A stretch of DNA of 50,793 nt, taken from assembly GCA_944322955.1 (NCBI GenBank), contig CALUQQ010000055.1, positions 1 to 50,793 of the forward strand, written 5' to 3'. Shown piece after piece: positions 1-31,120 of this stretch (position 1 is the stretch's first letter; each line of letters starts with the position of its first letter). The notes under the pieces were generated by a model, which saw nothing but the letters and a program-made list of their open reading frames with translations, had not been told where the DNA came from and searched no databases. This DNA comes from Candidatus Gastranaerophilales bacterium (lineage in GTDB: Bacteria; Cyanobacteriota; Vampirovibrionia; Gastranaerophilales; Gastranaerophilaceae). Both the position numbers and the translations under genes were made by a program.

Positions 1-23
1 CGACCACAACTTTGTAGGTCAGA

Positions 24-141
24 TTTACTAAACCGACAGTTACCTCTTAGTGCCTTAGTATCATAGTATCTTAATAACTTCTTCCAGAAAACACCCCCAA
101 AAATCGCACTACGAGCGGTTAAAAGGGTCGCCCCCCCCCGA
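24..141 (-). repeat. Copy A of a dispersed intergenic cassette (five 8-nt units at 41-80, conserved box 109-141 including the G9 tract)
   Basis: Aligns by eye with 29686-29803 (copy B). The box ctacgagcggttaaaagggtcgcccccccccga is identical in both. Partial copies at 40623-40672 and 44019-44074. Confidence 0.8.
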
Positions 142-166
142 CGTTACTAAATTTGTTGTTTTTCAT
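119..166 (-). CDS. Short ORF MKNNKFSNVGGGRPF* containing a G9 tract; with G10 the frame stays open to the left window edge
   Basis: AAGGAG (181-176) lies 9 nt before the ATG at 166. Promoter TTGCAA(230-225)-17-TGcTAAAAT(207-202). TAA at 121-119 with 9 G. Confidence 0.4.
   Translation of the reverse strand: MKNNKFSNVGGGRPF
131..139 (-). repeat. Homopolymer G9 (C9 on + strand)
   Basis: Counted directly; flanked by TC on the minus strand (TCG9), as at 11836-11844 and 29793-29801. Confidence 0.95.
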
Positions 167-201: not shown

Positions 202-230
202 ATTTTAGCATTTTTTTGCAAATTTTGCAA
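202..230 (-). promoter_or_regulatory. Sigma70-type promoter for the G9 ORF (TTGCAA-17-TGcTAAAAT)
   Basis: Hexamers and 17-nt spacer read directly from the minus strand. Confidence 0.55.
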
Positions 231-11477: not shown

Positions 11478-11855
11478 TTACCTGCGTTTACCACCCTCAA
11501 ACACATCGTACATTACGTTCGCGCTCAAATGCTCCTTACTCGTTCCGCCCGACGGCTCATCATCTTTATAAGCAGGGATTACCTTCCCGCTTTTCAATAA
11601 ATAAAACGGAAATACGTCTTTCCACAATTCACTCTTGCCTGAATTCCCGTTTACATCTACATATATCTTAAAGCCTTTTCTGTCATTCTCATCTTCTGCA
11701 TCTGACAATTCATCTATTTTTTCATAATCTGTTCCTGTTATCGGCAATGTCACGCATACCACCATAGTTATTGCAACCAAAGCAACCACCAGTTCACCTA
11801 GCGTGAAACCCAGTCTATTTGGGCTTAAAGAGCTACCCCCCCCCGATTTGTACAA
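11478..11855 (-). CDS. Prepilin-type N-terminal cleavage/methylation protein, interrupted at both ends (G9 tract at the 5' end, frameshift at the 3' end)
   Basis: ...NRLG/FTLGELVVALVAITM motif and DVNGNSGKS motif shared with the other two pilins. The in-frame start is an SD-less TTG. See findings. Confidence 0.7.
   Translation of the reverse strand: MYKSGGGSSLSPNRLGFTLGELVVALVAITMVVCVTLPITGTDYEKIDELSDAEDENDRKGFKIYVDVNGNSGKSELWKDVFPFYLLKSGKVIPAYKDDEPSGGTSKEHLSANVMYDVFEGGKRR
11836..11844 (-). repeat. Homopolymer G9 inside the prepilin leader
   Basis: Counted directly. Confidence 0.95.
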
Positions 11856-11893
11856 AAATTTTCAAATACTTTCATTTCAACTCCTTTTACTAC

Positions 11894-11922
11894 ATTATAA
11901 TAAATTAAATTATATTTTGCAA
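11894..11922 (-). promoter_or_regulatory. Consensus promoter TTGCAA-17-TATAAT for the pilin locus
   Basis: Read directly; followed by AAGGAG (11886-11881) and the ATG at 11875. Confidence 0.6.
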
Positions 11923-13793: not shown

Positions 13794-13905
13794 AAAATGA
13801 TGCTCGGAAAAAAAAAAAAAAAACTTGATGAAGTTGACTTCGGACTTTCAAGAGTAAAACAGCATTTGTAAAAAAAAAACGCCCCTAAAGGGCAAGGAGA
13901 AGATT

Positions 13906-26288: not shown

Positions 26289-27017
26289 TTATCTTAAAAT
26301 CATGTCGTCATTAATTTCCCAATTATGTCGAATAATATAAGAAAAACAATAATAACCGCGCCCGCCGTCTGAACAATCAGCATCAACTTCGTCATTAGAT
26401 TTGTCCGAACCTGCCGGCAAAAGATTTCTGTTATTAAACACAAACACAAAAATATCTCGTCCGATAACATTCGGGCCGGAATCACCATTTACATCAACAT
26501 GCATAACAAGCCCGGCTTTATCCATTTCAACTCCGAAATTATCTTCAATATCCTGCGCACTGGCACCGTCCATATTAACATAAACATTATCAAGCGTTTG
26601 AAAAACAATTATATTACCGCCAATTCCTTTAGTGCCTTCATCCCAAATCGCAGTCTGACCGTTCAATTGTTTAGTGACGCCTTCCTTATGCCAGCAGCCC
26701 GGAGTGTCATCCAGACAGTCTTTTTGTATACGTAAATTAGGTTTCAAATAATAATTATACCAATTTTTCATACTTTCATTATTACCGTCCTCAAAATCAA
26801 CGTATGAATAACCCAAATTATCTGCTACGGTTTTTTGAATAGCCTGCTGCAAAACCGAATAAGTTTTTTTCAATTTTGTAATTGTTACAACGCGCTTGTA
26901 ATCCTTAATCAATGTCGGAATAGTCATTGCGGCAACAATTCCGATAACACCAAGTGTTATCAAAACTTCCGCAAGAGTAAATGCCGTATGAAATTTATTA
27001 ACACAAAATCTGGACAT
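26289..27017 (-). CDS. Prepilin-type N-terminal cleavage/methylation protein
   Basis: MSRFCVNKFHTA/FTLAEVLITLGVIGIVAAMTIPTL and DVNGDSGPN motif. I prefer the ATG at 27017 over the TTG at 27047. Confidence 0.8.
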   Translation of the reverse strand: MSRFCVNKFHTAFTLAEVLITLGVIGIVAAMTIPTLIKDYKRVVTITKLKKTYSVLQQAIQKTVADNLGYSYVDFEDGNNESMKNWYNYYLKPNLRIQKDCLDDTPGCWHKEGVTKQLNGQTAIWDEGTKGIGGNIIVFQTLDNVYVNMDGASAQDIEDNFGVEMDKAGLVMHVDVNGDSGPNVIGRDIFVFVFNNRNLLPAGSDKSNDEVDADCSDGGRGYYCFSYIIRHNWEINDDMILR

Positions 27018-27414
27018 GAACTGTTCTGGTCCTCGCTTTATTATCAAAATCTACCAACACGATTTGCTGCCACTGCCCTAATTGCAAAGCTCCTTCCAAT
27101 AGAGGCACCATTGTAGAATTACCTACAATTGAAGCTCTGATATGAGAATAACCGTTTCCATCATGCCACATCTCATCATGATGATATTCTTTATTAACCG
27201 GCACAATTTTATCCAAAATTTCCGGCAAATCTTTTAACAAACCAGGTTCATACTCAATATTTGTAATTGAAACAGTGCTGCCGGCGACATACACATATAC
27301 AACCGCATCTTTCAATGAATGCCTGTATACAAGATTTTTCACCTCGTTAGTAACATCGATAATATCAGTATTACCTTTAGTATGTACTGTAAATTTTTCA
27401 CAAATTATTGTCAT
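26998..27414 (-). CDS. yjbQ: YjbQ/UPF0047 family protein (secondary thiamine-phosphate synthase-like)
   Basis: 138 aa with the family-typical ...YHHDEMWHDGNGYSHIRASIVG... block. Confidence 0.8.
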   Translation of the reverse strand: MTIICEKFTVHTKGNTDIIDVTNEVKNLVYRHSLKDAVVYVYVAGSTVSITNIEYEPGLLKDLPEILDKIVPVNKEYHHDEMWHDGNGYSHIRASIVGNSTMVPLLEGALQLGQWQQIVLVDFDNKARTRTVHVQILC

Positions 27415-28777: not shown

Positions 28778-29521
28778 TTATAATCTTGATCTGCCGTAAA
28801 GCCATGTAATATAATAACATTTCCCTGAAGGGCACCAGCGCTCTTTTATCGTGATATCATGATTCATGCTTGGTTTTACCATATCCGGCACAGAATCCGA
28901 ATACGGTGACGAATTGTTTGCTGACATTGCAAACCCGAATCTGTCTTTTCCGAGTTGATTCGGACCTTTAAAACCGTTAGTATCGACTAAAAATACCGGT
29001 TCATTACTTGAATACATCTTCCAATTGCGGCCTTGAGCGTCAATAAACGAATATTCCCCCTGACATACGATTGTACCTTTAAAATTTTCGTCAACATGAG
29101 TAATATATGCCTGCTCAGCGTCTTTGCATTTCCAGCAGATGTCACCGTATTCTCTATCAAAACACGTTTTGGTTGCTTTAAAATATTTTGCCAGGATTTT
29201 AAAGTTTTCAGCATAATTAGGGGAATAACCAGGCTTTGGATTACCTTCTTCATCATTTATAAAAACAATTTTTTGCAAAGAAGTTCCGTCGGCCAACAGC
29301 ATCTTGAATGCCTGATTTACGTCGCTGAATGCTGCTTTATAGGCGTTTTTATAGACAAAATCCTGCATATTTGATATCAAAGTCGGAATTGTCATGGCTG
29401 CCACAACACCGATTATGCCAAGAGTAATTAAGACTTCGGCAAGAGTAAAAGCTGCTTTTTTTGAAGTAAATAAGGTAGTAGGGGAATAATGGAATAAGTG
29501 TTTTCTGTGTGCATCGCACAA
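28778..29521 (-). CDS. Prepilin-type N-terminal cleavage/methylation protein
   Basis: ...TSKKAA/FTLAEVLITLGIIGVVAAMTIPTL and DTNGFKGPN motif. The only in-frame start is the TTG at 29521, 8 nt after GAGGGG. Confidence 0.75.
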   Translation of the reverse strand: MCDAHRKHLFHYSPTTLFTSKKAAFTLAEVLITLGIIGVVAAMTIPTLISNMQDFVYKNAYKAAFSDVNQAFKMLLADGTSLQKIVFINDEEGNPKPGYSPNYAENFKILAKYFKATKTCFDREYGDICWKCKDAEQAYITHVDENFKGTIVCQGEYSFIDAQGRNWKMYSSNEPVFLVDTNGFKGPNQLGKDRFGFAMSANNSSPYSDSVPDMVKPSMNHDITIKERWCPSGKCYYITWLYGRSRL

Positions 29522-29602
29522 GGGGCTTACCCCTCACCTTGAGGGCGGGGGTTGAATTTCAACACCAGCTTGCGAGTGTTTGAAATTCGGGGACGGGGTC
29601 GC
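29521..29602. repeat. REP/MITE-like double-hairpin module (copy 1)
   Basis: GAATTTCAACAC-10 nt-GTGTTTGAAATTC (29554-29588) flanked by G/C-rich short hairpins. Homologous to 40544-40609 in the opposite orientation relative to the neighbouring repeat. Confidence 0.7.
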
Positions 29603-29685
29603 ATTTTTTGAGATCCTTCGGCTATCGCCTCAGGATGACAAGACAAATTCCTCCAATGCCCAGTGCGTTGTCCCGACTTTTGCAG

Positions 29686-29803
29686 TTTACTAACCCGACT
29701 GTTACTTCTTAGTGCCTTAGTGCCATAGTATCTTAGTATCTTTTTCCAATAGATACCTTCGAAACTTCCTCTACGAGCGGTTAAAAGGGTCGCCCCCCCC
29801 CGA
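29686..29803 (-). repeat. Copy B of the dispersed cassette (8-nt units 29703-29742; conserved box 29771-29803 with G9 at 29793-29801)
   Basis: Aligned by eye with 24-141. Confidence 0.8.
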
Positions 29804-29828
29804 GATCCATACTAATCATATCTGCCAT
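29781..29828 (-). CDS. Short ORF MADMISMDLGGGRPF* containing a G9 tract; G10 gives a 102-codon frame ending 5 nt before the pilin TTG
   Basis: AGGAGG (29840-29835) lies 6 nt before the ATG at 29828, which starts 2 nt after the obg stop. Internal promoter at 29847-29874. Confidence 0.4.
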   Translation of the reverse strand: MADMISMDLGGGRPF

Positions 29829-29830
29829 TT

Positions 29831-31120
29831 CTACCCTCCTGAATACATTTTATCATCAAAATATTCCATTTCAAGGTGACCTATGACGATTGTGTCGCCG
29901 TCTTTTACACCTTGTTTTTTCAGCTCCTCAAATACACCCATGCCGGTAAGAATATTTTGCAGCCTAATAATCTGTTCGGTATTTCTTGCATCCGTAACCG
30001 CCGCGAGCCGTCTTATTTTGCCGCCGTCCACAATGTATGTGTCTTTTGCAGTTTTATAAATTTCAAAAGCACTATCGTCATTATTATAAGCAGCAAAATC
30101 TTCTTCCACAACAATATCTGATACGTGATGCTCAATCTCATCCACTTTAACCGCCATAAAATCAAGCAGTTTATCAAGATTTTCGCCTGTTACGGCAGAA
30201 ATAAGGAAAACGTCCTTTGCGGCTTTTTTAAACTCAGCCGACAATTCATCCTGTATTGCTTTATCAACCGCGTCAATTTTATTCAAAACAACAATTTGAT
30301 ATAGATTAGCAAGCTTTTCGGAATGTTTTTCAAGCTCTGAAATAATTATTTCATAATTTCTAAAAGGGTTGTCTGCCGTAATATCAACAAGATGGACAAG
30401 AAAACGGCAGCGTTCAATATGACGCAAAAATTCATGCCCCAGCCCGACACCTTCAGACGCACCTTCAATCAAACCCGGAATATCTGCAACCACATAACCG
30501 TCACCCGAGCGTTTTTTCACCACGCCCAGATTAGGAATTAATGTAGTGAAAGGATAATCGGCGATTTTGGGTTTGGCGGAAGAAATTCTGCTTATAAGTG
30601 TTGATTTTCCTGCATTCGGCATACCTAAAAGCCCGACATCCGCAATTAATTTCAATTCGAGCTCAAGTTCGCGTTCAATGCCCGGTTCTCCCGGTTCACA
30701 AAACTGCGGGGCACGTTTTTGAGCGGTTGCGAATCTTGCATTTCCCCTGCCGCCTCTGCCGCCTTTGGCAACAAGAACTTTTTGTTCGTGTTCTGTTAAA
30801 TCAGCAATGGCCTTACCGGTTTTCAAATCTCTGACAACCGTTCCCACAGGAACTTTTATCACTAAATCTTTAGCACATTTGCCATGCATATTTTTAATAC
30901 TGCCGTTTTCGCCGTTTTCTGCTTTAAATACAGATTTATATTTAAAATCCATCAACGTTGACATATTTTCGTCCGCAATCAAATAGACATCACCGCCGGA
31001 ACCGCCGTCCCCGCCTGCCGGGCCGCCTTTATCTACATATTTTTCGCGACGCCAGGCAACCATACCGTTTCCGCCTCGTCCTGAAATAATTTTTATTCCG
31101 GTTTTGTCTAAAAATTGCAT
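29831..31120 (-). CDS. obg: GTPase Obg/CgtA
   Basis: MQFLDKTGIKIISGRGGNG N-terminus, GMPNAGKST, DIPGLIEGA, NKID. Confidence 0.96.
   Translation of the reverse strand: MQFLDKTGIKIISGRGGNGMVAWRREKYVDKGGPAGGDGGSGGDVYLIADENMSTLMDFKYKSVFKAENGENGSIKNMHGKCAKDLVIKVPVGTVVRDLKTGKAIADLTEHEQKVLVAKGGRGGRGNARFATAQKRAPQFCEPGEPGIERELELELKLIADVGLLGMPNAGKSTLISRISSAKPKIADYPFTTLIPNLGVVKKRSGDGYVVADIPGLIEGASEGVGLGHEFLRHIERCRFLVHLVDITADNPFRNYEIIISELEKHSEKLANLYQIVVLNKIDAVDKAIQDELSAEFKKAAKDVFLISAVTGENLDKLLDFMAVKVDEIEHHVSDIVVEEDFAAYNNDDSAFEIYKTAKDTYIVDGGKIRRLAAVTDARNTEQIIRLQNILTGMGVFEELKKQGVKDGDTIVIGHLEMEYFDDKMYSGG
29847..29874 (-). promoter_or_regulatory. Promoter TTGAAA-16-TAAAAT embedded in the obg 3' end
   Basis: Read directly from the minus strand. 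Confidence 0.5.

Follow-up and report, generated by a model that had tools for sequence, protein, structure and literature searches.

The question raised by this DNA is why three long G runs of identical length, each one base short of an open reading frame, should stand ahead of pilin-like genes, and whether they act as switches on those genes. Homopolymers were counted throughout the window, by which we mean the whole 50,793-nt stretch analysed. Only three G/C runs reached 7 nt, all of them C9 on the plus strand (131-139, 11836-11844, and 29793-29801), and the sole further G/C run of at least 6 nt was a C6 at 34566. From base composition (36.6% G+C), 0.026 runs of at least 9 nt were expected, against the 3 observed. 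A first-pass annotation had reported these as the only long G/C homopolymers in about 50 kb; the census bore this out, and the coordinates and sequences given there were right when re-read from the window. On the sense (minus) strand, TC is situated immediately 5′ of all three runs. In 345 kb of related loci fetched for comparison, each G/C run of at least 7 nt had an SD-ATG on one side and a pilin N-terminal motif on the other, or was cut by a contig end. In the window census and the related loci taken together, the tracts were over-represented relative to composition and concentrated ahead of pilin-like genes. Between a GFO_IDH-type gene and a CDP-alcohol phosphatidyltransferase gene, the intergenic region has an A16 run (13808-13823) and, 47 nt beyond it, an A10 run; this may be another mutable tract.

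The three loci share one layout. On the minus strand, the order at 3 of 3 loci is a sigma-70-like promoter match, a strong SD, an ATG followed by 8-9 codons, and TC-G9. The promoter matches consist of TTGCAA or TTGAAA, a 16-17-nt spacer, and TATAAT or TG-TAAAAT (consensus matches only), and the SD sequences are AAGGAG or GGAGGG. G9 falls 8-9 codons into the SD-ATG ORF at all three loci, i.e., in the 5′ part of the ORF, and each tract is upstream of a prepilin-type gene. A fourth prepilin-type gene lacks a tract, the remainder of the window holds housekeeping genes (polA, clpXP, tig, dnaE, dnaX, aspS, obg, and tsaD), and no prepilin peptidase or assembly machinery was found within the window. 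The features are as follows.

202-230, minus strand: locus 1 (left contig end) sigma-70-like promoter, TTGCAA-17-TG-TAAAAT, a consensus match only
119-166, minus strand: locus 1 short ORF at G9, MKNNKFSNVGGGRPF and a stop, with SD AGGAG at 176-180
131-139, minus strand: locus 1 poly-G tract, G9 on the sense strand
109-141, minus strand: Box A copy 1, TC-G9-CGACCCTTTTAACCGCTCGTAG, identical to 29771-29803
45-73, minus strand: Box B copy 1, an arm of a dispersed REP/MITE-like repeat within the locus 1 leader, by sequence comparison
11894-11922, minus strand: locus 2 sigma-70-like promoter, TTGCAA-17-TATAAT, a consensus match
11825-11875, minus strand: locus 2 short ORF at G9 from the SD-ATG, MKVFENFCTNRGGVAL and a stop, with SD GGAG at 11881-11884
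11836-11844, minus strand: locus 2 poly-G tract, G9 here and G7, G8, or G9 among strains
11478-11855, minus strand: locus 2 pilin-like ORF, N-terminal RLGFTLGELVVALVAI, joined to the SD-ATG at G10 or G7
29847-29874, minus strand: locus 3 (downstream of obg) sigma-70-like promoter, TTGAAA-16-TG-TAAAAT, inside the obg 3′ end
29781-29828, minus strand: locus 3 short ORF at G9, MADMISMDLGGGRPF and a stop, with SD GGAGGG at 29834-29839 overlapping the obg end
29793-29801, minus strand: locus 3 poly-G tract, G9; read as TGGGAGGGGG (G3AG5), also 9 nt, in 7 other samples
29771-29803, minus strand: Box A copy 2, 33/33 identical to copy 1
29527-29780, minus strand: locus 3 repeat-built leader, open only in the +1 (G10) frame, containing Box B (29707-29735), the 8-nt tandem GGCACTAA twice (29709-29724), and REP-like hairpins
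28778-29521, minus strand: locus 3 prepilin-type gene, KKAAFTLAEVLITLGIIGVVAAMTIPTL, with a TTG start preceded by GGTGAGGGG
26289-27047: fourth prepilin-type gene (MSRFCVNKFHTAFTLAEVLITLG), without a tract, overlapping the yjbQ end and showing a weak DUF6613 match in strain annotation

In the G9 state, the ATG frame stops after 15-16 codons at each locus, and in silico one additional nucleotide (G10) opens it at each. The claim that every tract is one base short is accurate relative to the SD-ATG, with the caveat that at locus 2 an SD-less TTG (11855) is already in frame at G9. With the additional nucleotide, locus 2 has a pilin-like ORF of 132 aa and locus 3 a leader ORF of 100 aa, and at locus 1 the frame is open as far as the contig end. 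Tract length toggles between full-length product and early stop in silico at locus 2, at locus 1 (as represented in strain L010), in L044, in L016-L024, and at locus 4 of L010. The toggle to the pilin motif is absent at locus 3, L045, and L046, where the in-frame leader ORF ends before the motif. All tract lengths were taken from consensus assemblies, and the strain loci were retrieved from other samples by exact-protein look-ups. The first-pass view of the tracts as non-random, located at gene 5′ ends, and acting as frame switches is supported by this arrangement.

Locus 2 was the one at which length varied among strains: G9 was read in 4 samples, G8 in 4, and G7 in 1 (9 samples), the G7 allele (L033) being in frame with the ATG. 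Starts are available in all three frames, the ATG at G10, the SD-less TTG at G9, and another TTG at G8. The product contains the prepilin motif, with an N_methyl match of only 12.8 bits, below threshold, and a homologue search returned its own cluster only, with none outside the species. Judged by comparison of strains, locus 2 is probably a live switch. In strain ERZ16268105, a deletion between direct repeats (TAATGTAG / TATGTAG) has removed the locus 2 promoter, ATG, tract, and pilin N-terminus (L026 1000-1520, the same as L010 20300-20720; window ~11620-11900).

The same arrangement was found in a much wider family. A search with the locus 3 protein gave 7526 homologues at E ≤1e-5, one of them named Candidatus Gastranaerophilales at 41% identity, and among the best 120 of these 7526 there were 15 with GGG in the called N-terminal leader. 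The 90% identity cluster of the AspS protein includes 'Clostridium sp. CAG:967', a genome that GTDB places in Gastranaerophilales. A profile of the +1-frame leaders detected 7 proteins called in that frame, e.g., MNKKEFKNLGGGATLLTAR. L044, from another species, reads SD-ATG-MKNKEFKSI-TCG9-CGACCCTTCTAA, again ending in GGGRPF and a stop, and in its +1 frame no stop intervenes over the roughly 125 codons leading into AFTLAEVLITLG. In L010, the ON frame runs straight from the tract to AFTLAEVLITLG, about 75 codons on. L045, from a sample that also holds the present species, has the identical Box A in a G10 version at another locus, adjacent to a GGDEF gene; L046 has a related box with G10, and its leader TAG overlaps the pilin GTG start (TAGTG). 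Other species showed G9-G13 at the same position, including length variation of the G11/G12 type; L009 (G11) and L021 locus B (G11) are ON, and the remaining loci are OFF, some needing +1 nt and some -1 nt. Most alleles in the wider sample are OFF. The ON leaders were 22 aa at locus 2 and ~90-125 aa at locus 1 of L010, L009, and L044, so that a short (~5-30 aa) prepilin leader is not a general property of these genes. A weak PilN match was found near the L009 locus.

Two further features of the family were observed. At L010 2300-2420, a pilin-like locus next to rpsU carries an inverted tract and Box-A-like sequence, with C8 on the sense strand; the antisense reading is TCG8CGACTATCTGAACCGCTTTTGTAGTG, the tract is located 12 codons after the SD-ATG, and the ON length would be C7 or C10. 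In many leaders, a decoy prepilin module (K-GFTLAE-GATHV...) precedes the real AFTLAEVLITLG by a few codons (P0010, P0026, P0028, P0048, P0057, P0064, P0125, and L010 2370-2450).

The reading that we consider probable is that the three G9 tracts are slip-prone contingency switches heading scattered, fast-evolving type IV pilin-like genes of a gut Melainabacteria (Gastranaerophilales-type) bacterium. A slipped-strand change in the G run would set the reading frame downstream of the SD-ATG. At G10 or G7, ribosomes would continue into a leader whose length ranges by locus from 22 to ~125 codons, and this ON leader would be either fused to the prepilin N-terminus (A/G-FTLxE plus a hydrophobic helix) or would end at or beside the pilin start, in which case translational coupling would follow. 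At G9 or G8, a stop 4-7 codons past the tract would turn the gene OFF, and all three switches would have been caught at an OFF length in the sequenced population. Behind this reading stand the observed anatomy, frame logic, length polymorphism, in-frame alleles, and exclusive association of the G/C runs with these genes. We infer from the alleles that switching would be reversible and frequent within a clone, that ON alleles would give a processed pilin by processing of a long-leader prepilin, and that coupling may operate at locus 3. Against the phase-switch reading are the lack of length change at loci 1 and 3 (4 and 9 assemblies, respectively), the failure of any tract length to join ATG and pilin ORF at locus 3, the in-frame leaders of L045 and L046 that stop before the pilin motif, the OFF state of most alleles, and the ON forms themselves, whose prepilin leaders would reach ~125 aa, well beyond the known lengths.

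Loci 1 and 3 are linked by their sequence as well as by their layout. The 33-nt box noted at 109-141 and 29771-29803 was confirmed as identical at 33/33 positions, and Box A, consisting of the tract and CGACCCTTTTAACCGCTCGTAG, is identical at three paralogous loci. Two occurrences of its 19-nt core, and no more, were found in the window, where even a search tolerating 3 mismatches would be expected to give 0.01. The next 24 nt, described as about half identical, matched at 13/24, and a second conserved block (38/44) had been overlooked. The flanking leaders of loci 1 and 3 are ~73% identical (66/91 aligned columns); at this level, 33 consecutive matches have a probability of ~3e-5, which points to nucleotide constraint or concerted evolution. 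In the pilin N-terminal coding region, about half of the third codon positions differ between the two loci, and none differ in the box; the suggestion of nucleotide-level conservation beyond coding is thus upheld by the many synonymous differences in the pilin N-terminus and their absence from the box. Apparently, loci 1 and 3 have a box under concerted evolution, through gene conversion or a recent copying event, and if so the two tracts would not be independent. The argument that three independent switches are unlikely to be OFF together is weak on these grounds, the box of loci 1 and 3 being concerted, the ON length (10) common to all three, and most such loci OFF.

Box A provides stops in both OFF frames (TAA and TAG). 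Between species, the changes 3′ of the tract (ACC to ACT, CTT to CTC, and TTA to CTA) are pyrimidine transitions that are synonymous in the ON frame (ATLL). The same changes keep a possible hairpin formed by the G run, a GCGA loop, and the pyrimidine run; since G pairs with both C and U, retention of this hairpin is not evidence of covariation. Exact searches with the 19-mer box core in GTDB species genomes (596 Gb) gave 4 matches, in Alphaproteobacteria and an archaeon, equal to the number expected by chance, and the 22-mer box had no match in JGI metagenomes. Rfam searches of the whole window at the gathering threshold and of 29300-29900 in E-value mode returned nothing relevant.

The leaders themselves are built of repeats. 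Box B (TAAGATACTATGRYACTAAGGCACTAAGA; 45-73 and 29707-29735 in the window) is the arm of a dispersed inverted-repeat element of REP/MITE type, and JGI metagenome contigs (L047-L050) have it in ordinary intergenic DNA too, behind the stop codons of unrelated genes. This dispersal indicates that the leaders are mosaics of REP-like repeats. In L044 (4091-4283) and L046 (105-308), two 35-37-nt arms, 86% complementary, flank 119-134 nt before the pilin N-terminus; such inverted repeats were present in these two and were not found in the leaders of the window itself. An inverton was considered and dropped, as the inverted repeats of L044 and L046 are arms of a dispersed repeat found in ordinary intergenic DNA as well, and the window loci lack them. 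A c-di-GMP or other riboswitch was likewise dropped, no Rfam match having been obtained. Related leaders carry (GGAAGTAA)n. Contigs of several assemblies end inside leaders or beside tracts (window 1-108, the starts of L011 and L012, and the end of L013), and with contig ends falling at repeat-built leaders and tracts, these loci are systematic assembly breakpoints.

At locus 3, the tract was G9 in 2 samples and TGGGAGGGGG in 7, with 9 nt in all 9 assemblies. The +1 frame comprises 100 codons and ends at a TAA (29527-29529), 5 nt before the TTG of the pilin gene (247 aa), and no tract length fuses the ATG to the pilin ORF. The gene product has the N-terminal pattern (G/A)-F-T-L-x-E followed by a hydrophobic helix, and matches PF07963 at 23.3 bits (cut-off 21.2) and TIGR02532 at 19.1 (cut-off 16.3). 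Among strains, the leader differs in having GGCACTAA twice or once and in a 76-nt deletion; the 8-nt tandem is present twice in the window and once in every other strain examined, forming a second frame-shifting repeat in the leader. The pilin ORF was intact in the 7 strains checked, with 0-7 nucleotide differences (0-4 synonymous and 0-3 non-synonymous, for which dN/dS is underpowered). With indels of 8 and 76 nt in the leader, an intact pilin ORF, and no joining length, locus 3 expression may not depend on the tract, and the pilin may be expressed from its own TTG start. The fold of this leader, computed on the single sequence, was no more stable than shuffles (z = -0.59). In a low-coverage contig (L043 1418-1513), obg and an SD-ATG 'MADMIS' run into unrelated sequence that replaces the tract, box, and pilin; either the site carries another cassette in this case or the contig is a chimera.

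The window is a complete contig whose left end falls within the locus 1 leader, and the prepilin motif of this locus is present in strain L010, where the +1 frame is open from the tract for about 75 codons directly into KRVAFTLAEVLITLG. The tract was G9 in 2 assemblies and G8A in 2, always 9 nt (4 assemblies); one G9 allele has CGCCCC in place of CGACCC. The pilin-like gene body is frameshifted in strain ERZ16268105 (L010 8596-8700), and its C-terminal part matches DUF6613. Because G8A and G3AG5 keep 9 nt, they would lock loci 1 and 3 OFF, and these two loci look partly locked or decayed in many strains.

Several other explanations for the tracts were weighed. Loci 1 and 3 may be relic switches above decaying or independently expressed pilins, their identity reflecting gene conversion or shared descent and not current function. 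This is unlikely, although the locus 3 leader is broken in every frame, with its strain-specific 8-nt and 76-nt indels and a tract interrupted in 7/9 samples, the locus 1 pilin body is frameshifted in L010, the locus 2 5′ end is lost in one strain, and the box lacks the synonymous-site divergence so abundant in the pilin N-terminus; the locus 3 pilin ORF is nevertheless intact in 7/7 strains checked, the SD, ATG, and promoter-like sites are kept, and uninterrupted G9 persists in several strains. Programmed recoding would make G9 itself functional, by -1 slippage on G GGG GGG with a pause at the rare CGA and CCC, or by RNA polymerase adding one G. The 9-nt length preserved among strains and species (loci 1 and 3, and L044) agrees with it, as do the uORF end GGGRPF-stop common to all of these, the possible small hairpin (tract, GCGA, and pyrimidine run) in all five box-type leaders, and codon usage: GGG was presumed rare and is indeed the rarest Gly codon at 7.1 per 1000, with CGA (2.3) and CCC (4.3) likewise rare. 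G GGG GGG followed by CGA also fits the slippery X XXY YYZ, but formally only. In-frame alleles exist in the DNA, however (G7 at locus 2 in L033, G10 in the identical box of L045, G10 in L046, and, at G11, L009 and L021), and elsewhere the shift has the opposite sign, -1 nt being needed, so that obligate recoding on G9 is disfavoured. The inverted box, in which the sense strand reads C8, is more readily explained by a strand-symmetric DNA mechanism than by one acting on RNA, and at locus 3 the shifted frame falls short of the pilin. No conserved structure was found 5-9 nt downstream in an RNAalifold analysis of 5 leaders, which gave a hairpin using the tract itself and a poorly supported distal helix; the unexceptional fold of the locus 3 leader adds to this. 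Recoding of this kind is therefore quite improbable, while leaky slippage on G9 ahead of the rare CGA and CCC is physically plausible.

An attenuator would give the 15-16-codon ORF a function as leader peptide or uORF, its translation, or a stall on GGG-GGG-GGG-CGA-CCC, controlling the pilin gene. The strong SD, ATG, and short ORF are preserved, the codons concerned are rare, two variants among locus 1 strains leave the uORF peptide unchanged (GGG to GGA and CGA to CGC), and the locus 3 pilin has its own start 260 nt downstream. We regard it as very improbable, the uORF N-termini being wholly different between loci, the locus 3 strain variants being non-synonymous (D/N, L/F, and G/R), and the uORF ends varying across the family (GGVAL, GGGGSL, GGGGVL, and WGGGL); moreover, no terminator-like site was found on the sense strand between uORF and gene at the three loci, the locus 2 uORF overlaps the pilin ORF itself, and the between-species changes are synonymous in the other (ON) frame. 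The Gly-Gly-Gly leader attenuator proposed at first pass is disfavoured accordingly, its peptides not being conserved beyond the Gly run. A conserved GGGRPF stalling peptide was dropped as a candidate as well; it is confined to box-type loci, and the other frame explains it better. Last, the true length could be G10 everywhere, with the missing base under-called in sequencing or assembly. Each of the 3 runs lacks exactly one base, and several platforms are prone to errors in long G stretches; yet loci 1 and 3 were read with 9 nt in independent assemblies of no fewer than 10 samples (SPAdes-, MEGAHIT-, and Logan-style contigs), the interrupted alleles (G8A and TGGGAGGGGG), which are much less prone to miscalls, also have 9 nt, and locus 2 shows G7, G8, and G9. 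G10 was never read at these three loci and was reported at L045 and L046. As alleles broken by substitution keep 9 nt and G10 is reported elsewhere, a systematic under-call, raised at first pass as one possibility, is extremely improbable in view of the agreement among independent short-read-style assemblies.

An extension of these ideas, which we regard as speculative and rather unlikely, is that the poly-G-gated leader ORF (up to ~125 codons, with REP-like repeats) is a dedicated module. Through G10 or low-level -1 slippage on G9-CGA, it would deliver ribosomes to a pilin ORF that has no good start, by termination-reinitiation or by melting long-range repeat pairing, and gene conversion would keep the paralogues uniform.

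The slipped-strand switches favoured here can be compared with known systems. Jonsson et al. (1991) reportedly described poly-G translational phase variation of pilC1/pilC2 in N. gonorrhoeae and N. meningitidis. As in Neisseria pilC, a G run is located close to the beginning of an ORF related to type IV pili, 1 nt toggles between full-length and truncated product, and several paralogous loci would be switched independently. The genic tract of pilC is G(9-20) (PMC5953494). Unlike here, where the product is a pilin-like subunit, PilC is a tip/assembly protein; the tract in the present loci is in a long repeat-built leader that sometimes only adjoins the pilin ORF, the switching is deduced from sequence, and the organism belongs to an uncultured Melainabacteria lineage. 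Campylobacter jejuni and Helicobacter pylori resemble the present case in having AT-rich genomes with long G/C runs nearly confined to surface-structure genes and varying by 1 nt among isolates. Their poly-G/C tracts are mostly inside genes for enzymes or outer-membrane proteins, and we know of no flanking box common to loci and no repeat-built leader in Campylobacter or Helicobacter. The H. influenzae lic1A repeat, (CAAT)n, has starts in more than one frame upstream, as locus 2 does, and in L008 and L022 an ATG or GTG similarly abuts the tract; by analogy, alternative starts could give graded rather than binary expression. Unlike these homopolymers, the lic1A repeat is a tetranucleotide, and the candidate alternative starts here are without an SD. 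A homopolymer of at least 9 nt at which one base restores the frame is also seen in -1 frameshifting and transcriptional slippage (dnaX, IS elements, and endosymbiont poly-A rescue). The present loci differ from programmed slippage systems in having no conserved out-of-frame state and no downstream stimulator, and in-frame alleles occur naturally.

Literature searches on Gastranaerophilales with pilin and on Melainabacteria with phase variation returned no description of such loci, and homopolymer pilin switches are apparently undescribed for gut Melainabacteria. Unusual here are the very long repeat-built leader ORFs, the concertedly evolving tract box, and the locked 9-nt alleles. Gene callers split or mis-start such genes, and called 'proteins' of 63-190 aa are leaders only; together with the assembly breaks at leaders, these errors mean that MAG annotation of the clade systematically misrepresents its pilin repertoire. 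If the phase-switch reading is true, gut Melainabacteria (Gastranaerophilales-type) vary a very large, scattered family of pilin-like surface proteins by homopolymer contingency switches, which would suggest that their pili are under strong pressure from phages or host immunity.
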